A DNA stretch of 64,000 nt from assembly GCF_017348835.2 (NCBI RefSeq), contig NZ_CP071375.1; one strand, given 5' to 3'. Shown in pieces: positions 17,955-64,000 of this stretch; position 1 is the stretch's first letter; each line of letters begins with the position of its first letter. The notes under the pieces were generated by a model. The model saw nothing but the letters and a program-made list of their open reading frames with translations, ran no database searches and was not told the origin of the DNA. A program made the translations under genes and the position numbers. The stretch comes from Escherichia coli. Lineage in GTDB: Bacteria > Pseudomonadota > Gammaproteobacteria > Enterobacterales > Enterobacteriaceae.

Positions 17955-18050
17955 TAAGTGGCCGGATAAGGCGTTAACGCCGCATCCGGCAATGGTGAAC
18001 GATGCCTGATACGACGCATCACGCGTCTTATCAGGCCTGGTAATCTGTCT
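17955..18050. repeat. REP element pair
   Basis: ggccggataaggcgttaacgccgcatccggca ... cgtcttatcaggcctgg; typical REP palindromes. Confidence 0.75.
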
Positions 18051-54601: not shown

Positions 54602-54928
54602 ATGACTAAAAATACTCGTTTTTCCCCCGAAGTCCGTCAGCGGGCGATTCGTATGGTTCTGGAAAGTCAGGATGAATATGACTCACAGTGGGCGGCAATT
54701 TGTTCCATTGCCCCAAAGATTGGCTGTACGCCGGAGACTCTGCGTGTCTGGGTTCGCCAGCATGAGCGGGATACCGGGAGTGGTGATGGTGGACTCACCA
54801 CCGCTGAACGTCAGCGTCTGAAAGAGCTGGAACGTGAAAATCGTGAACTGCGCCGCAGTAACGATATCCTTCGCCAGGCTTCCGCTTATTTTGCGAAGGC
54901 GGAGTTCGACCGCCTCTGGAAAAAATAA
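54602..54928 (+). CDS. IS3-family transposase OrfA (HTH DNA-binding part)
   Basis: 108-aa [33 protein letters not shown]... with a leucine-zipper-like C-terminus; A-rich slippery run (ggaaaaaataatg) at its 3' end. Confidence 0.85.
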
Positions 54929-55815
54929 TGCCACTGCTGGATAAGCTGCGTGAGCAGTACGGGGTCGGACCGGTATGCAGCGAACTGCATATTGCCCCGT
55001 CAACGTATTACCATTGTCAGCAACAGCGACATCATCCGGATAAACGCAGTGCCCGTGCGCAGCACGATGACTGGCTGAAGAAAGAGATACAGCGCGTATA
55101 CGATGAAAATCACCAGGTATACGGTGTGCGTAAAGTCTGGCGTCAGTTGTTACGGGAAGGTATCAGAGTGGCCAGATGCACTGTGGCACGTCTCATGGCA
55201 GTTATGGGACTTGCCGGTGTTCTCCGGGGTAAAAAGGTCCGCACTACCGTCAGCCGGAAAGCCGTTGCCGCATGCGACCGCGTAAACCGTCAGTTCGTGG
55301 CAGAACGTCCAGACCAGTTGTGGGTGGCTGATTTTACCTGGGTAAGCACATGGCAGGGCTTCGTTTATGTGGCGTTCATCATTGATGTGTTCGCCGGATA
55401 CATCGTGGGATGGCAGGTCTCATCATCCATGGAAACAACATTCGTGCTGGATGCACTGGAGCAGGCGTTGTGGGCCCGTCGGCCGTCCGGCACAATCCAT
55501 CACAGTGATAAAGGTTCTCAGTATGTATCGCTGGCCTACACGCAGCGGCTTAAGGAAGCCGGATTACTGGCATCAACAGGGAGTACTGGCGACTCGTATG
55601 ACAACGCGATGGCTGAGAGCATCAATGGTCTTTACAAAGCGGAGGTAATACACCGTAAGAGCTGGAAAAACCGGACAGAAGTGGAACTGGCCACACTAAC
55701 GTGGGTGGACTGGTATAACAATCGACGATTGCTGGAAAGGCTGGGCCATATTCCTCCGGCAGAAGCAGAAAAAGCTTATTATGCTTCCATCGGAAATAAT
55801 GATCTGGCAGCCTGA
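54928..55815 (+). CDS. IS3-family transposase OrfB (DDE integrase catalytic domain)
   Basis: 295-aa ORF in the -1 frame relative to OrfA; rve/DDE core recognisable (WVADFTWVST ... DKGSQYVS ... DNAMAES). Confidence 0.85.
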   Translation: MPLLDKLREQYGVGPVCSELHIAPSTYYHCQQQRHHPDKRSARAQHDDWLKKEIQRVYDENHQVYGVRKVWRQLLREGIRVARCTVARLMAVMGLAGVLRGKKVRTTVSRKAVAACDRVNRQFVAERPDQLWVADFTWVSTWQGFVYVAFIIDVFAGYIVGWQVSSSMETTFVLDALEQALWARRPSGTIHHSDKGSQYVSLAYTQRLKEAGLLASTGSTGDSYDNAMAESINGLYKAEVIHRKSWKNRTEVELATLTWVDWYNNRRLLERLGHIPPAEAEKAYYASIGNNDLAA

Positions 55816-57446: not shown

Positions 57447-57631
57447 TCTCGTTTAGGGCTTGGTTTATTATTACTCCGTAGAGCACATTTATCGTATTTA
57501 TGTTCATCAAATTTATTATCTGGCATCGATAAACAATCTTTATCATTTTTATCGCAAGAACATATGGCCAATAAACTGATCAGAATAAATACAATCAAAA
57601 AATTATCTTTCATTCTGCGTTTCCTCACCAA
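57440..57631 (-). CDS. Small lipoprotein in the TrbK (IncP entry-exclusion) position
   Basis: 63-aa ORF with a hydrophobic leader and Cys-containing lipobox-like motif (LLAICSCDK); overlaps the trbJ stop and trbL start, as trbJ-trbK-trbL does in IncP plasmids. Confidence 0.45.
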   Translation of the reverse strand: MVRKRRMKDNFLIVFILISLLAICSCDKNDKDCLSMPDNKFDEHKYDKCALRSNNKPSPKREW

Positions 57632-58419
57632 ATTCGCTTCGGGCTTGGTGTATTCTCTCCAGCTAACGCTTTTTCATCAGCGGCTATCTGTTGTGATTCT
57701 TTATCTGCCTGAGCCTGTGCCAGTGTTGCTGCAGCGTTTTGTTGGGCTACCAGAAGTGAGCGGATTTGCAGTAACTGATTTGTCTGTGCACTGGCAAGCT
57801 GGTTTGCCGCCTGAATAGCTTCCATTTGCCCTTGTGCGCCGCTTGCCTGAGTTTGTAATTCGGCAAGATTATCAGCATCGCTCTGCAGGGTGTTCTGCTG
57901 CTCGTCAATTACCTTAAATACTGCGTCATTGGCCTTTTTACGCGCCCCTGAGCTATTCTGTTCAGCTTCACGCAGTGCACTAATTTCAGACGCGGTACAT
58001 TCAACATTGCTGTTAAAGCAAGACGATGTCCTGTAGTAGTTAACATCCTGATAGCGTTTCAGGTACGCATCGAGACTCCCGGCCTGATTCTTGTAGTAAT
58101 TAAGGGTATCCTGCACCTGCAACAATTTATTAATTGTTGAATTTGCCTGGTCCCAGATATAGGCCGCAGGAGCTACGGTGTTCTGCAGCATGTTTTCATA
58201 CTGCTGCAGCTGCGTCTGGTACTGCTGGATTTGTTTAGTCACAGCCTGAACGTTGTTAACTGCGCTGATTGTGGTCTGAACCACATTAGTGCCATCAATA
58301 ACGGGAATTCCGGCCTTCACCGGTAATGCCATGACGGACGCCACGAAAGGAACTATTAAAGCTTTTTTAGCGGCTAAAATCCCTCTTTGTGATGAAACCA
58401 CTCGGAACTTTAAATTCAT
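57625..58419 (-). CDS. trbJ: TrbJ/VirB5-family conjugative transfer protein
   Basis: 264-aa ORF with signal peptide and Gln/Ala-rich coiled-coil stretches typical of TrbJ/VirB5 minor pilus/adhesin proteins. Confidence 0.6.
   Translation of the reverse strand: MNLKFRVVSSQRGILAAKKALIVPFVASVMALPVKAGIPVIDGTNVVQTTISAVNNVQAVTKQIQQYQTQLQQYENMLQNTVAPAAYIWDQANSTINKLLQVQDTLNYYKNQAGSLDAYLKRYQDVNYYRTSSCFNSNVECTASEISALREAEQNSSGARKKANDAVFKVIDEQQNTLQSDADNLAELQTQASGAQGQMEAIQAANQLASAQTNQLLQIRSLLVAQQNAAATLAQAQADKESQQIAADEKALAGENTPSPKRIW
58365..58379. promoter_or_regulatory. KorB-operator-like palindrome TTTTAGCGGCTAAAA (copy 1, inside the 5' end of trbJ)
   Basis: Perfect inverted repeat containing TTTAGCGGCTAAA, identical to the IncP-1 KorB operator consensus TTTAGC(G/C)GCTAAA. 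Confidence 0.6.
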
Positions 58420-58499: not shown

Positions 58500-58865
58500 T
58501 TATTTATCCAAGATTTTATCCATAATGTTCCTTAGTTCTTGCCGAGTTGATTCTATTTTCGCAAGCAAGGTTCTTATCAGTGTGGGTGAAAAATCAACTG
58601 TTCGAGGATCATTTGCGAGCCATAATTTAAGTAATCCGCCAAGTCTTCCAAGATCAGCATTTACTCGGCTAAGTTCATTAACCTGTTTTATATCTACGAT
58701 AGAATCAACCTGATAACCCATTGCAACTCTACGAACAAAACAGGCAACACTTAATCCAGATGCTTCTGCATTTTCTTGGATGAGAATTTTTTCTTCGGGT
58801 AAACAATAAACTTTTATTGGCGTACTATTTTTTCTAGTCTGAGTAACTTTCATATAGCTCTCCAT
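58500..58865 (-). CDS. MobC-family relaxosome accessory protein (ribbon-helix-helix)
   Basis: 121-aa ORF; VYCLPEEKILIQENAEASGLSVACFVRRVAMG ... LSRVNADLGRLGGLLKLW fits the MobC-family pattern; lies directly beside a candidate oriT region. Confidence 0.55.
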   Translation of the reverse strand: MESYMKVTQTRKNSTPIKVYCLPEEKILIQENAEASGLSVACFVRRVAMGYQVDSIVDIKQVNELSRVNADLGRLGGLLKLWLANDPRTVDFSPTLIRTLLAKIESTRQELRNIMDKILDK

Positions 58866-58939
58866 ACAGGCGGTAGCCTGGCAGCCTCGCAGAGCAGGAC
58901 GCCCTTGAGCCGCGATGCGGCGAATAGGGAGTGGTAAAG

Positions 58940-58995
58940 TTGGAACACCGTAGCGGTGGGCCCACTTTACATGTCCTGCCCTGCAGTTGCCGTTG
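58940..58995. promoter_or_regulatory. Candidate origin of transfer (oriT-like region)
   Basis: 10-bp perfect palindrome GTGGGCCCAC (58956-58965) immediately followed by CTTTACATGTCCTGCCCTGCAG, which resembles my recollection of the IncP nic region (core TCCTGCCC); adjacent to the MobC-like gene. Confidence 0.35.
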
Positions 58996-59252
58996 TATAT
59001 CTGTGCACGACAATGTGTATTTCAGTGTACAGGATGTGTTTTCTTAGCGTATTAATATAGGATTACTGGAGTAAATTTCTGCAGCAAATGTGTTTTTTGC
59101 AAGGAAACTATATTTCTCCCTTTTGAAAATGACCTTTAGTAGTTATAAATGGACGTCCACCAACTGTATTTATGTTTCGATATATTGTAAGAAGTCTTTC
59201 ATTTTCCGATGCACTTTTTTACTTACCTTGTCAGAGCATGTGCATTGCAGAT

Positions 59253-59265
59253 TTTAGCGGCTAAA
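59253..59265. promoter_or_regulatory. KorB-operator-like palindrome (copy 2)
   Basis: aTTTTAGCGGCTAAAATc; exact match to the IncP-1 KorB operator core, in the 675-bp intergenic region. Confidence 0.6.
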
Positions 59266-59501
59266 ATCTGCCTCCCTATGCCTAAAGCTAGGGGCGTACC
59301 TCATATGTCATAAAATCTACCTCAAGTGTCAATATACCAAACGTGTAAGTAATCTCTTCTTCTGGCGTACAACCATCGGTCTTTGGCCGATTCTAGATTT
59401 GAAAGCGCCTGCTCAGGCAGGTGATTTCAAAGCCTGAATATACTGGTTGATCCTGAATAACCTGCAAAGGAGTTAAAAAATCAGGCCTCTGTAGCACACT
59501 G

Positions 59502-59562
59502 GCGGGCCGTTACAGCACATCACCGGGCCGTAACGACACGTTACCGGGCCGTTGTAGCTCGT
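59502..59562. repeat. Three direct iteron-like repeats with 21-bp periodicity
   Basis: CGGGCCGT recurs at 59503, 59524 and 59545 with similar flanks (..TACAGCACAT / ..AACGACACGT / ..TGTAGCTCG); the third overlaps the stop codon of the putative initiator gene. Confidence 0.5.
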
Positions 59563-60314
59563 TTTATCCTAGAATTTTGTATCTCAATGCCAATCGCTAG
59601 AAATTGTTTGCTATCTTCTTTTAATCTCCGCCGATAGTTACGTAATGTCATATTATTGGTACCTTCACCACTGACAGCTAAAATTAATGTATCAATATGC
59701 CAGCCGCCTTTAGGATCGTGCTTATGTGTTAATATATGACGTGCAACTGCTTGGCTAATACCATGCTGGAGACGAGCAATAGGACCTGGATCATGATGAA
59801 AATGCAAATCTCGCTTCAACAACATTACCAATGCAACACCCAAGCGTACTCTCCATAGGTTACGTTCACCACCAGTTAGAGGATTACGCCTAGTCATTGG
59901 TGAGGGTACGACATGGTCAATTAAACCGCCTAGAATGCAATAACCGTTTTTTTCTAAATCTGGCGTTACTATTTCAACAGTTGCCACACGTAGATCAACG
60001 AGTAGTTTTTTAATTCGATCATAACTGTATTGTGCATCGGATAGAGTTCGGCGTACTTTCGCTGGATCTACTAATAACTCGATTCCTCCATCAGAAATTT
60101 CTCGACGTTTCTCGGCCACATAGAGCATTGTTTCCACAATATCCGCATGACGTTGTCCTAGTCTTCCGGTAACTCGACAACGACCAAAACTAGTCTCCAT
60201 CCACTGCCCCTTCAGCGCCAAGGGACGTTGACTTGGTTGGTACAGAATGACTCTAGCCTGCAGAGCTGTGCTAGTAGGTGTAACTTTATTACCAGTTATC
60301 ATTTTCTGCACCAC
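59541..60314 (-). CDS. Hypothetical protein, possible replication initiator (RepC-like by position)
   Basis: 257-aa basic protein directly downstream of the RepA-like helicase gene and ending in the iteron-like repeats; assignment rests on gene order, not on recognised motifs. Confidence 0.35.
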   Translation of the reverse strand: MVQKMITGNKVTPTSTALQARVILYQPSQRPLALKGQWMETSFGRCRVTGRLGQRHADIVETMLYVAEKRREISDGGIELLVDPAKVRRTLSDAQYSYDRIKKLLVDLRVATVEIVTPDLEKNGYCILGGLIDHVVPSPMTRRNPLTGGERNLWRVRLGVALVMLLKRDLHFHHDPGPIARLQHGISQAVARHILTHKHDPKGGWHIDTLILAVSGEGTNNMTLRNYRRRLKEDSKQFLAIGIEIQNSRIKRATTAR

Positions 60315-60330
60315 TCAATGAAGACATACA

Positions 60331-61146
60331 TTATTTTGCTATTTGTTTTTTATTCTTCGATTTGAGTTGCGTTATCCTTAATACTCCTCCCTCATGTCTC
60401 TGTAACCAACGTTCTGGCGTACGTTCTCCATAATTTGCTTTATTTATTCCAAATCTAACAAATTGACCTCGAACATCATCAGAAATATCATACGTCTTCG
60501 CTTCTAAGGCGGTCATGCCCGCCAGATAAGATTGCCACCGTATATTATCAACCAGGACGCTACTACCCCTGCTTGCCTGCTGTATATCACCAACTCCCAT
60601 CGTGGCAGAGCCTTTGTTTGAATGGTGTAGAAATATAATCGAACACCCTGTATCAGCAGCAATACCTTCTAGCTTTCCAATGACTTTGGACATTGCTCCG
60701 CTATTATTTTCATCTTCCTGGTGGAAACGGCGAAGAGTATCCAAAATTATTAACCGTCTACTTTTTGAAATCTCATTAATCAAGTTGCTCCAACCTGGCG
60801 AGAAAATATTTGGACACTTCCCTACCAAAGGTTCGACAAGTAGCTTATCAGCAACAATCTGCTGCTGACGTGCTGTTAGATATTTTCCCAAAGCATATAG
60901 ACGATGGTGAATGATGGTTGCAGAGTCCTCCACAGGTAAATATGCCACTAACCCCGTTGGATATTCACCAAAGTTTAAAAGATCTACACCACAAGTAATC
61001 TGCACAGCCAGTTGCAATGCCAGCATTGACTTTCCAACGCCTCCCGGAGAAACAATCGCTCCGATAGTACCAATAGCCAAATTAGGCAAGACGTAATCAA
61101 TTGGTTGCGGCTTAGCTTCAAATGCTTCCATTATGTTCAATGACAT
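60331..61146 (-). CDS. RecA-fold AAA_25 ATPase, RSF1010 RepA-like replicative helicase
   Basis: 271-aa ORF with Walker A (SPGGVGKSMLALQLA) and Walker B-like (RLIILDTL) motifs; size and motif layout as in IncQ RepA. Confidence 0.6.
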   Translation of the reverse strand: MSLNIMEAFEAKPQPIDYVLPNLAIGTIGAIVSPGGVGKSMLALQLAVQITCGVDLLNFGEYPTGLVAYLPVEDSATIIHHRLYALGKYLTARQQQIVADKLLVEPLVGKCPNIFSPGWSNLINEISKSRRLIILDTLRRFHQEDENNSGAMSKVIGKLEGIAADTGCSIIFLHHSNKGSATMGVGDIQQASRGSSVLVDNIRWQSYLAGMTALEAKTYDISDDVRGQFVRFGINKANYGERTPERWLQRHEGGVLRITQLKSKNKKQIAK

Positions 61147-61151
61147 TGCTG

Positions 61152-61403
61152 TTACCTACCTAAAACAATACCGGGTCTGGCTGCTTTAAACATTGCTGAT
61201 TTACGATCCGCAATCCACTGTTCCACTTCGGATAACTGCCATGCAACATTTCGGCTCGTAAGTGCTATACGGCGAGGAAACTCGCCTCGCTGTTCAAGGT
61301 TATAAATAGTGCGGGCTGACAATGGGATCATTTCCAGAAGTGTTTTTCTGTTAATGAGCGTGCTATGTGCCTTTGTTTGCATCTGCCTTCCTCCTGTTTC
61401 CAA
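61152..61403 (-). CDS. alpA: AlpA-family prophage/island transcriptional regulator (excisionase-like)
   Basis: 83-aa ORF with the AlpA HTH signature (LSARTIYNLEQRGEFPRRIALTSRNVAWQLSEVEQWI). Confidence 0.7.
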   Translation of the reverse strand: METGGRQMQTKAHSTLINRKTLLEMIPLSARTIYNLEQRGEFPRRIALTSRNVAWQLSEVEQWIADRKSAMFKAARPGIVLGR

Positions 61404-61459
61404 TCAGGCCTATACAATGCCAAGCATTACCACTTGCTAAAACCTATTCATTGGCTAAA

Positions 61460-62431
61460 ATGGTTGACATGAAAATTACTATCTGGGAAGGCTGTGACCT
61501 CACAGTTGCAGCTGCAATTAAATTATTTGTAGAGCGTAGTTCTCCGTACTCCATATTTTCACGGAGGTATCCAATACTGCGTCTCATACAGGAAGTTATT
61601 GATCCAGCAGTAGCTGATTATGTAAATTCCCTGCCACCAAGTCATAAAGACTACATTTCTGGAGTAAATCTAGGATTTAGTGAAGTACTTAAAAAATTGG
61701 GTTTAAACGTCGTAGTACAGGCACAAAGACTTCTTTTGCGTAATTTCGTTCTGACTTTAGATCAACAAACTTCTCTTGATAAATGCTTTACCGCTACGAT
61801 TGAGTCTCTTATTGAATTAGTCAGTGAATGCGCATCCAAGCGGCCGAAGAAATCCTCTCCTGCAAAAGGAGTAACTATAAATTCACAGCGTAAGCTCGGT
61901 TATTGCGAGTTCTGCGGTAATCTAACCGAATTTTCCAAGTTGATCAGTGAGATATCAGAATTTGTTGCTAACGATAATGAGTTCCCCGTTCATGAAAAAC
62001 AGGTCCTTAGTCATCGATATTGTTCTGACCATAGGCCCAAACTCACCAATGGTCTATGGAATCCCAAATACAGACAAGGAAAGCGGTCTCTCGAACAGTT
62101 CAATAAAGAATTAATAAGGCTTAGACGGCAATGCGCTAAACCTCATAAAGCTAACGCAAACACAGGGGATATATTGATTGATACATATTTTCATGAGTGG
62201 ATGCAGGGTCAAACTTTAACCCCAGCAGATCTAGATAAACTTAGGAATATCGCCAGACGAATGGTTGACTCCAAATTCACTGATACTAAGAAAAAAATAA
62301 TCATATTAAAACACCAAGGTTTTAACCAGTTTGAAACCGCACAGGTTTTAGAAAAAAATCACTACACAACTATGACAAAGCAGGCTGTGTCCAAGGCCTT
62401 AGCGTCTGTGAGGAAAGAATTTTATATTTAA
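61460..62431 (+). CDS. Hypothetical protein with Cys/His cluster and C-terminal helix-turn-helix
   Basis: ORF track starts at 61367, overlapping alpA; a more plausible start is the ATG at 61460 (MVDMKITIW). Contains CEFCGN ... HRYCSDH and a C-terminal HTH-like segment; no family recognised. Confidence 0.45.
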   Translation: MVDMKITIWEGCDLTVAAAIKLFVERSSPYSIFSRRYPILRLIQEVIDPAVADYVNSLPPSHKDYISGVNLGFSEVLKKLGLNVVVQAQRLLLRNFVLTLDQQTSLDKCFTATIESLIELVSECASKRPKKSSPAKGVTINSQRKLGYCEFCGNLTEFSKLISEISEFVANDNEFPVHEKQVLSHRYCSDHRPKLTNGLWNPKYRQGKRSLEQFNKELIRLRRQCAKPHKANANTGDILIDTYFHEWMQGQTLTPADLDKLRNIARRMVDSKFTDTKKKIIILKHQGFNQFETAQVLEKNHYTTMTKQAVSKALASVRKEFYI

Positions 62432-62856
62432 AATAGTATATCCACGAGCTATTATGGTGGCAGTTTAAGTCTTAATACCATCCACTTTATTGAATTATAA
62501 CCAGCCACTTACGAAGGTTTTTCGCGATTACCCTGCTTCAAATTGATGATTTTGAAAATACAGTATTATAGTTTATTGTTTGTAGCGCAGCTGTAAGCGT
62601 TATGCAAAATGGATCACAGTGATACGACCTCACCAGTAAATCACTGAAGCCGATCTGTAATGACATAGAACGAATTGGTTTTATGGTTATGCAATGGCTC
62701 ATCCCCTTACTTGTCCCTGACCATAAAAAGCATTCGCTTTCCTGAAAGCAAGTCTAAGCCAAGGGGCGTTTACAGTTGTCTTATCTTGACTCATTAGGTA
62801 CTGGCTTAATGATTAGAATCATGTCGGTGGCATTTAGGTCCAAATATGCCCAAAAT

Positions 62857-62869
62857 TTTAGCAGCTAAA
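62857..62869. promoter_or_regulatory. KorB-operator-like palindrome (copy 3, central A variant)
   Basis: aTTTTAGCAGCTAAAATt; same arms with a central A instead of G/C. Confidence 0.5.
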
Positions 62870-62900
62870 ATTCGTCTTCTCATGTAGGGTCAAGAAGCTT

Positions 62901-63098
62901 ATGACTAAACCTATTGATTATGTGAATTACCTTGTGAGTAATACTCGTAGGATGGAATCTTCCAAAACTCTGACAATTCACTCTGAATGCATGGTAACAA
63001 AGAACAGTTTAAACCATGGTCTGTTCAGCGTTAAATTTCTCAAGATAGACTTCCATTTCGCGAGTCCACCTAGGGGTAGGTACCGAGGTGATCATTAG
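62901..63098 (+). CDS. Small hypothetical ORF (65 aa), doubtful
   Basis: Begins about 30 bp after KorB-like copy 3 but overlaps the 3' end of the convergent 209-aa ORF; weak ribosome-binding site. Confidence 0.2.
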   Translation: MTKPIDYVNYLVSNTRRMESSKTLTIHSECMVTKNSLNHGLFSVKFLKIDFHFASPPRGRYRGDH

Positions 63099-63638
63099 CC
63101 AAGGAAACCACCATACAAGCATGAAGAGTAACATAAGCGGTGCGATCATTTCGGCCGAAGAATGAGAAACTATATACATAATGAATAATATTAGTAGAAC
63201 TGTGTTTACAATCTGACCTACCAGAAAAAGACGCCAGCGAAAACAATGCCATTTCCTGTTGAACACAATCCGTCCATCCCGTTCTTCGAGCCAGTTACGC
63301 CACGGCTTGAGATAACCAGCCCGCAACCCATAACGATCACACATTATTACAGCCAAATCCTGCAGCCGATAATTATACAAGCCTGTGAGCCGATAAAGGC
63401 TGCGCTGACGAAGCTCACGCTTTGCCAGACGGACCGCATTTTTATTCAAATATGGCTGTGTCAGCATTTGCTCTAGCCGGCGCTTCCTAAGATTGAGTAG
63501 TCCACGAAATACACTTCCAGATTCAGCATTAATTACTCTGTGACGAACTACACCGAGTGCAATATAGATACACAGCAATAGCCAGCCGGTCTTAGGGTAT
63601 TGATTCATCCATTGTATAATTACAGACAACTCAGGCAC
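63009..63638 (-). CDS. Hypothetical membrane protein (209 aa)
   Basis: Two to three predicted TM helices separated by an Arg-rich loop; KorB-like copy 4 lies about 55 bp upstream of its start; no family recognised. Confidence 0.5.
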   Translation of the reverse strand: MPELSVIIQWMNQYPKTGWLLLCIYIALGVVRHRVINAESGSVFRGLLNLRKRRLEQMLTQPYLNKNAVRLAKRELRQRSLYRLTGLYNYRLQDLAVIMCDRYGLRAGYLKPWRNWLEERDGRIVFNRKWHCFRWRLFLVGQIVNTVLLILFIMYIVSHSSAEMIAPLMLLFMLVWWFPWLMITSVPTPRWTREMEVYLEKFNAEQTMV

Positions 63639-63692
63639 TTTTATTTTTCCTTTTTATGCAATCCAGATAAAACCAGTAAAGATTCAGTAAAT

Positions 63693-63705
63693 TTTAGCGG
63701 CTAAA
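63693..63705. promoter_or_regulatory. KorB-operator-like palindrome (copy 4)
   Basis: aTTTTAGCGGCTAAAATt, between the 209-aa membrane protein gene and the integrase gene. Confidence 0.6.
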
Positions 63706-63761
63706 ATTGCTCTCCTGGCGTAGAAAAAAGAAGCACACCAACTTAACTTACTGATTATTAA

Positions 63762-64000
63762 CTACTTACTAGTCCATTCATCAATCATATTCGCCCAATC
63801 TTGTAGCATCTCAGCCCTCTGCTCACGATATTCTGCCTTGTTATAAACAGCTCGTACCCCTTTTTGTTCATGGGCAAGGCTCTTCTCAATCCAGTCAGTA
63901 TTGTACCCGGCCTCATGTAGCAAGGTGCTGGCTGTACGCCGTAAGTCATGGGGACCAAACTTAGGCAACAACTCCCCTTCTTTCTGAGCCAGGCGATACG
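63762..64000 (-). CDS. int: Tyrosine recombinase (P4-type integrase), C-terminal part; the gene continues past the window end
   Basis: Frame open to the window edge; C-terminal sequence ...GPHDLRRTASTLLHEAGYNTDWIEKSLAHEQKGVRAVYNKAEYREQRAEML contains the catalytic H-x-x-R and Tyr region of phage-type integrases. Confidence 0.75.
   Translation of the reverse strand, partial: YRLAQKEGELLPKFGPHDLRRTASTLLHEAGYNTDWIEKSLAHEQKGVRAVYNKAEYREQRAEMLQDWANMIDEWTSK

Follow-up and report, generated by a model that had tools for sequence, protein, structure and literature searches.

Regulatory RNAs are known from mobile elements, among them the CI RNA of P4, which is roughly 80 nt long, and the sRNAs of Salmonella islands. 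The leading regions of conjugative plasmids carry another kind of structured signal, the ssDNA promoters of the Frpo type, in which a long hairpin carries paired -35 and -10 boxes. Among integrative mobilizable elements (IMEs), SGI1 hijacks the helper control and the parABS functions of IncC plasmids (PMC10954446). PIMEs were described only in 2026, and the available text of the preprint counts about a thousand of them across Pseudomonadota (bioRxiv 10.64898/2026.01.12.698999). According to the same text, a luxR-family gene is a hallmark of the PIME1 subfamily, whose members excise only when IncP-1 plasmids are present; the helper-derived inducer is explicitly said there to be unknown. The preprint covers the genes, the oriV downstream of repA and the oriT, and its available text contains no mention of a non-coding block or of KorB operators (bioRxiv 10.64898/2026.01.12.698999).

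The sequence analysed here is a 64,000-nucleotide stretch of Escherichia coli DNA (the window). Its last ~8 kb are 100% identical to the E. coli PE164 sequence next to guaA. The genes of the island are arranged in the order trbL, trbJ, traJ, a 257-aa gene, an AAA_25 RepA-like gene, alpA, a luxR-family gene, a gap, a 209-aa gene, an integrase gene and guaA. Pfam matches support the AAA_25, AlpA and NikA-like assignments. The features used below are as follows.

57625-58419, - strand: trbJ, preceded by trbL in the island order
58500-58865, - strand: traJ
59541-60314, - strand: the 257-aa gene
60331-61146, - strand: AAA_25 RepA-like gene (Pfam)
61152-61403, - strand: alpA (Pfam AlpA)
61460-62431, + strand: luxR-family regulator gene (so annotated by RefSeq in E. 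coli PE164, where the locus is identical), the stop codon of which forms the left border of the gap
62432-63008, no strand: true intergenic gap between two convergent genes, with 62432-62900 as its ORF-free part
63009-63638, - strand: 209-aa gene for a predicted membrane protein, convergent with the luxR-family gene, its stop forming the right border of the gap; flanked by KorB operator (OB) copies 3 and 4
from 63762, - strand: P4-type integrase gene, with guaA next

The island shares with the PIME1 subfamily the integrase gene by guaA, the divergent genes for the AlpA and LuxR-family regulators, a replicase, traJ/trbJ/trbL and an IncP-type oriT, and differs in that the window's copy is cut by an IS3 element beyond trbL. 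As judged from this gene content, it is a PIME1-type IME in truncated form. The protein encoded at 61460-62431 has 373 homologues, several of which are named LuxR family, and it matched no Pfam or NCBIfam model. Likewise, no Pfam or NCBIfam family was matched by the 209-aa protein, and no family match was obtained for a 65-codon ORF on the + strand at 62901-63098. The preprint strain RHB23-C07 was absent from the 45-60 E. coli records among the matches listed. Some further particularities of the island were noted. The IS3-family element abuts trbL, left of position 57600, and contains an ALIL frameshift pseudoknot (54883-54999, 120 bits). Compared with the related locus L004, the accessory region of the island and the chromosomal yfgH-yfgI are missing in this strain. 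At 59503-59558, at the 3′ end of the 257-aa gene, three CGGGCCGTTACAGC-like repeats occur with a 21-bp spacing; they look like iterons and make this position a candidate oriV.

The initial annotation had described 62432-62900 as a stretch without any ORF of more than 60 codons. This was confirmed by the ORF listing, which contains no ORF of at least 60 codons in any of the six frames (the longest are one of 54 aa on the - strand, 62538-62702, and one of 40 aa on the + strand, 62675-62797), and by a separate scan that recovered exactly the same coordinates. The run is the second longest ORF-free one in the window, after the oriT region (58866-59540). Because 46% of composition-matched random sequences (39% G+C) also lack ORFs of at least 60 codons, ORF-freeness is by itself weak evidence and unremarkable. 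RefSeq annotates nothing in the gap in 45 E. coli genomes among the matches listed. A scan for tRNA and tmRNA genes found none, and a distant blastn search of a plasmid collection with 62300-63000 gave no match. An attachment or recombination site, one of the contents previously considered for this stretch, found no support: the gap lies ~2 kb inside the element, whose integrase-side end is at guaA, and no core common to the gap and the int-guaA junction was found, the longest shared word being 11 nt.

Related blocks were found at the same place in other elements, between the end of the luxR-family gene and the integrase gene, always as unannotated DNA. In a lower-stringency search, 57 E. coli genomes matched positions 62563-62798 at 84% identity, and in other E. 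coli genomes an alignment through 62880 showed 79%. Three lineages were distinguished, all within Enterobacterales. Lineage A comprises the window and Phytobacter, lineage B E. coli W5-6 and Citrobacter, and lineage C E. coli KFu022, Buttiauxella and Erwinia. The initial annotation had made its proposals depend on sequence conservation in related elements; such conservation exists, the core of the block (62582-62782) being 79-85% identical across the three lineages.

Comparison of the whole elements revealed a mosaic. Between sister elements, the tra/oriT module is 92-98% identical (87-98% over a narrower segment) and the integrase module 93-95%, and the central module of the window's element cannot be aligned with theirs. 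The LuxR-family proteins encoded next to the block are only ~39% identical between lineages. In the related loci L002 and L003, the region ~59080-62560, with the 257-aa gene and the AAA_25 RepA, alpA and luxR module, is replaced by a module that contains a RepA_C replicase together with a luxR of 39% identity; over the same comparison, the tra and int modules remain at 88-98%. By these alignments, the block is retained at 79-85% identity despite the exchange of the whole neighbouring module. It also co-occurs perfectly with one type of oriT/tra module.

Of 5426 complete E. coli genomes, 91-98 (about 1.7-1.8%) carry the block. A Lonsdalea element (L006) whose luxR is 76% identical does not contain it, nor do most PIME1 loci, and it is therefore dispensable for the PIME1 family. 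No distant homologues were obtained with a covariance model on 76 related loci or with an nhmmer profile on all loci. A metagenome scan with an exact 24-base gapped pattern gave 10 loci, all belonging to the same three lineages. According to this distribution, the block belongs to one clade of enterobacterial PIME1 elements.

Structure prediction, which had been suggested as a check, gave a 13-bp closing helix with three arms and the same fold in the three lineages. Its parts are listed here.

62582-62782, + strand: structured core (covariance model R1, 236 bits; RNAalifold)
62587-62599 with 62767-62779, + strand: closing helix of 13 bp, 3 of them G·U (RNAalifold, seven sequences)
62600-62668, 62671-62736 and 62740-62766, + strand: arms P2, P3 and P4, enclosed by the closing helix
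62560-62579, + strand: optional hairpin of 6 bp that precedes the core and overlaps the candidate -10, with two pairs changed on both sides between lineages

The RNAalifold consensus of the seven sequences, which was derived from the same sequences on which it was tested, contains 70 pairs, and 97.8% of the cells are paired. Eight pairs change on both sides, as compared to 0-1 such pairs in slid controls, where pairing only reached 33-46%. A comparison of lineages A, B and C under a 61-pair model showed variation at 19 pairs and only 2 broken cells. Two less circular checks were added. When the A-to-B and A-to-C substitutions were re-placed at random, 52±1.9 pairs were kept, as compared to the 60-61 observed (0/20000 trials); the same permutation applied to a structure predicted from the window sequence alone yielded p = 0.015 and 0.009. 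Within lineage A, pairing is kept or restored by all five independent polymorphisms that fall on paired sites, and one of these shows the single G-A mismatch to be private to the window. Only three lineages are available, so that the covariation rests on few independent events.

In the 61-pair model, each lineage has 10-13 G·U pairs versus at most 1 A·C, and the fold is therefore specific to the + strand. Consistently, the z-scores of the + strand folded as RNA were -2.23, -2.34 and -3.17 in the three lineages, and those of the - strand were not significant. A conserved fold, compensatory changes and restriction to one strand are the general marks of a structured ncRNA, and all three were found here. 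On the strength of this modelling, we estimate at about one in two the chance that the gap carries a previously undescribed structured ncRNA, on the + strand and with its core at 62582-62782. For the small RNA that had been among the earlier suggestions, the 200-nt conserved core with its strand-specific compensatory changes provides computational support.

Conservation of this kind might also be that of protein-binding or otherwise sequence-constrained DNA, or of a decaying remnant of recent common descent, the structure being incidental. Long invariant runs, TATGGTTATGCAATGGCT and CGTTTACAGTTG, are indeed possible binding sites for LuxR, AlpA or a host factor. However, outside P3 the two longest invariant runs form pairs with one another, and the strands of the closing helix are two of the most conserved runs of the block. 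Moreover, 10-13 strand-specific G·U positions would not be tolerable in palindromic protein sites, and the permutation test shows that substitutions avoid breaking pairs far beyond chance. A mere remnant would agree with the small number of lineages known for the block, and with its place in a cargo hotspot that measures from 54 bp to ~6 kb across PIME1 loci and in most of them lacks it; its retention across the exchange of the neighbouring module argues in the other direction. We regard an origin of the conservation in DNA-level constraint or common descent as improbable.

A single ORF, with its start inside P3, is open in all lineages.

62683-62745, + strand: short ORF MVMQWLIPLLVPDHKKHSLS, open in all seven sequences, with 17-24 codons

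If this ORF were translated, the block would be the mRNA of a 17-24 aa protein (MVMQWLI...), possibly type I toxin-like, that is locked by the 5′-3′ closing helix and belongs to a toxin-antitoxin pair. Hok-type mRNAs are locked by 5′-3′ pairing, and the 13-bp end-joining helix recalls them; the start codon of the short ORF is sequestered inside a helix. However, the ORF has no Shine-Dalgarno sequence, and its hydrophobic stretch, only ~10 residues long, is too short for a membrane helix. Its C-terminus varies between lineages, as does its stop, giving lengths of 17, 20, 22 or 24 codons. No variation occurs in the first six codons, even at third positions, which indicates a constraint on the nucleic acid. 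A hand count in the alignment gave 3 synonymous versus 4 non-synonymous changes between lineages, in addition to the stop shifts; non-synonymous changes are thus at least as frequent as synonymous ones. A conserved antisense promoter was searched for and not found. A toxin mRNA is therefore very hard to credit, and the antitoxin RNA that had been envisaged for this stretch found no support in these results. Since the short ORF has no ribosome-binding site, its AUG lies in P3, its stop moves and the longer ORFs are broken, the short ORF was judged not coding and the block was treated as non-coding. As for the longer ORFs, those of 54 aa and 31 aa on the - strand have indels or lost starts in other lineages, and the 40-aa ORF on the + strand has a stop in lineage B.

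The block and its surroundings were inspected for transcription signals, all of them on the + strand.

62543-62572, + strand: candidate sigma-70 promoter TTGATG-18-TATAGT (consensus scan), with the -10 TATAGT at 62567-62572 and a predicted start at ~62578-62584
62786-62791, + strand: TTGACT, specific to this E. coli variant
62829-62859, + strand: weak terminator-like hairpin GGCAT...ATGCC followed by CAAAATTTT, with 5 bp and a 12-nt loop here and 8 bp in lineage C

An extended -10, TGtTATGAT, aligns with the candidate -10 in lineages B and C; -10-like boxes are thus aligned in A, B and C. At this place the metagenomic variant L086 reads TAATGG and has lost the candidate promoter. The optional hairpin at 62560-62579 conflicts with a start site at ~62580. 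The TTGACT had previously been noted as a -35-like element: it is present at 62786-62791 but is not conserved, related copies having TTGGCT, TTTGCT or TCTGCT. The terminator-like hairpin is found in lineage A, where it is weak, and in lineage C, and in both its T-run continues into the KorB-like site. It was not called a terminator in a terminator scan of the window. In lineage B the hairpin is absent, and the core is followed on the + strand by the hyp84-eexN genes, which encode an 83-aa protein and an EexN-family lipoprotein.

These signals can be accommodated in several ways. The putative structured RNA would be either an sRNA, the 3′-UTR of luxR or a leader element. When transcribed from its own promoter (-10 TATAGT at 62567-62572), it would measure ~200-280 nt and end near 62856. 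Alternatively, it would be the 3′ part of the luxR transcript. Speculatively, it could play a regulatory role in the life cycle of the element. In the window it might be idle, because the element is truncated by IS3.

Like the P4 CI RNA and the sRNAs of Salmonella islands, the candidate RNA is short and structured and lies in an acquired element with a P4-type integrase and an AlpA regulator. It differs from the CI RNA in being larger, ~200 nt, in its three-arm junction, in matching no Rfam sequence or structure and in having no target found. Indeed, a search of the whole window against Rfam 15 (4227 families) at gathering thresholds returned only ALIL, traJ-II and naRNA4, all outside the gap, and a permissive Rfam scan of 61300-64000 only gave sub-threshold eukaryotic snoRNA noise. 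An antisense target search in an IncP plasmid and in the element itself gave longest matches of 11-13 nt, at chance level. On the IncP plasmid, the covariance model with its filters off detected only trivial hairpins and nothing resembling the block. The naRNA4 (CssrE) match, at 17960-18037 on the + strand with 85.7 bits, is unrelated to the island.

The main rival of a structured RNA is that the fold acts as ssDNA, in single-strand initiation (priming) or as another ssDNA signal, in a recipient without the helper primase. The position of the block bears on this. In the oriT, GTCCTG|CCC follows an IncP-type inverted repeat (58934-58970) on the + strand (nic region to 58979). With traJ on one side of the oriT and the leading side on the other, the geometry is that of the IncP plasmid p14EC001a (traJ, oriT match, traK/L/M), the oriT of which is 81% identical. 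Relaxase-led transfer has an established polarity, the transferred strand entering 5′ first. From this polarity and the geometry of the oriT, the + strand is the T-strand and runs toward the block. It follows that the block lies downstream of nic on the transferred strand, at a distance of ~3.6 kb within the leading region, as an ssDNA signal of such a region would. In addition, alpA, repA and the 257-aa gene all use the + strand as template. The perfect co-occurrence with one oriT/tra module type also goes in this direction, and changes that are strand-specific and compatible with G·T agree with ssDNA no less than with RNA.

The predicted stability of the fold favors RNA. With DNA parameters, the window reached a z-score of -0.59 and lineage B one of -1.47, as compared to -2.2 to -3.2 as RNA; lineage C, with -2.07, comes closer to what a DNA fold would require. 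Likewise, the 61 pairs would include 10-13 G·T mismatches, partly in tandem, which are costly in DNA. Copying from a primer made at the block would be limited to the 3.6 kb that lead back to nic. Like the single-strand initiation signals and Frpo, the block is a strand-specific fold on the transferred strand in the leading region; it differs from them by its weak stability as DNA, by the absence of paired promoter hexamers and by a multi-arm junction in place of a single hairpin. Inspection of the arms revealed no long hairpin with paired -35 and -10 boxes as in the Frpo type, and upon inspection the flanks of the closing helix did not pair into a promoter duplex. We therefore consider a role as ssDNA unlikely. 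The oriT region gave one further observation. The Rfam traJ-II match (87 bits, 58883-58981 on the - strand) coincides with the oriT repeat and nic at 58934-58979 on the + strand (GTAAAGTTGGAACACCG tag CGGTGGGCCCACTTTAC ATGTCCTG|CCC), and the traJ-II motif could be a signature of oriT DNA, either instead of a traJ leader RNA or in addition to one.

We then considered the candidate RNA together with the operators around it. KorB is the global repressor and the ParB of the IncP-1 helper plasmid. The ORF-free stretch had been reported to end in a third KorB-like site, and this holds.

62857-62869, no strand: OB-like palindrome TTTAGCAGCTAAA, copy 3, with one mismatch to TTTAGCSGCTAAA, at the centre
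63693-63705, no strand: KorB operator copy 4, perfect, between the start of the 209-aa gene and the stop of the integrase gene

Both 6-bp arms of copy 3 are exact, and its central non-palindromic base is A, not G or C as in the consensus TTTAGC-S-GCTAAA. The central A is common to the lineage-A copies L005, L085, L089 and L091. Altogether the window contains 4 OB-type sites (58366, 59253, 62857 and 63693), as compared to 0.11 expected. As a check of the consensus, 13 perfect sites were found on the IncP plasmid p14EC001a, which has a related oriT. Lineage C has an operator on either side of the block and lineage B a single one, upstream; the window retains only the downstream operator.

The minimal luxR-integrase junction measures 54-58 bp and is essentially the operator, and elsewhere the junction reaches up to ~6 kb; the block is thus one insert in an operator-marked cargo hotspot. 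The 209-aa gene is a cargo cassette between OB copies 3 and 4. It is bracketed by direct repeats (62850-62900 and 63686-63735) that consist of a KorB operator and ~30 nt of its right flank; in the Phytobacter copy, this repeat of operator plus flank is 73.5% identical over 68 nt. From these sequences it looks as if cargo cassettes were exchanged by recombination at operator-bearing module borders. In some PIME1 loci an operator lies ~370 bp after luxR; there the intervening space is the alpA gene, and an analogous RNA was rejected.

Silencing by KorB can reach promoters as far as 1.5 kb away from the operator (PMC11790492), and with such a range, control of the candidate RNA by the KorB of the helper is plausible by analogy. 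More broadly, the operator sequences suggest that PIME1 elements may be wired to the KorB of the helper, for regulation or for partition. Speculatively, KorB of the helper bound to the flanking operators could modulate the synthesis of the RNA or the read-through toward the convergent integrase gene. A stronger version is that the RNA is part of how the PIME1 clade reads the presence of an IncP-1 helper: KorB at the flanking operators would silence the RNA promoter or block read-through into the integrase gene, and the element would pass from quiescence to excision. We give this version little credence.

SGI1 and the element studied here are both IMEs that carry DNA sites or circuits of their helper, which are here the predicted operator arms for KorB (ParB) of IncP-1. 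SGI1 differs by its helper family, IncC as opposed to IncP-1, and it is not known to have a counterpart of the structured block (PMC10954446). A structured RNA located between a regulator and the integrase, beside operators for the master repressor of the helper, would be a candidate component of the crosstalk between PIMEs and their helpers. Even if the block were only a stabilising 3′-UTR or an ssDNA priming signal, it would be a new, unannotated functional element.

Operators of the helper type were also counted in the related loci. Among 89 of these PIME1-type loci (984 kb), which come from many Proteobacteria, 159 perfect TTTAGCSGCTAAA sites were found, distributed over 79/89 loci. The luxR stop is followed at 11-53 bp by a perfect OB in 33 loci, and in 20 loci such a site follows luxR-alpA. 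B/C-type elements also contain GTTTAGCTAAAC, a perfect KorA operator (at 7153 in L003, at 4266 in L057/L058 and at 4269 in L059), which is absent from the window's A-type element. The KorA operator lies between traJ and repA, ~100 bp from a KorB operator, and this pairing of KorA and KorB operators resembles the korA/korB co-regulated promoters of IncP-1 plasmids.
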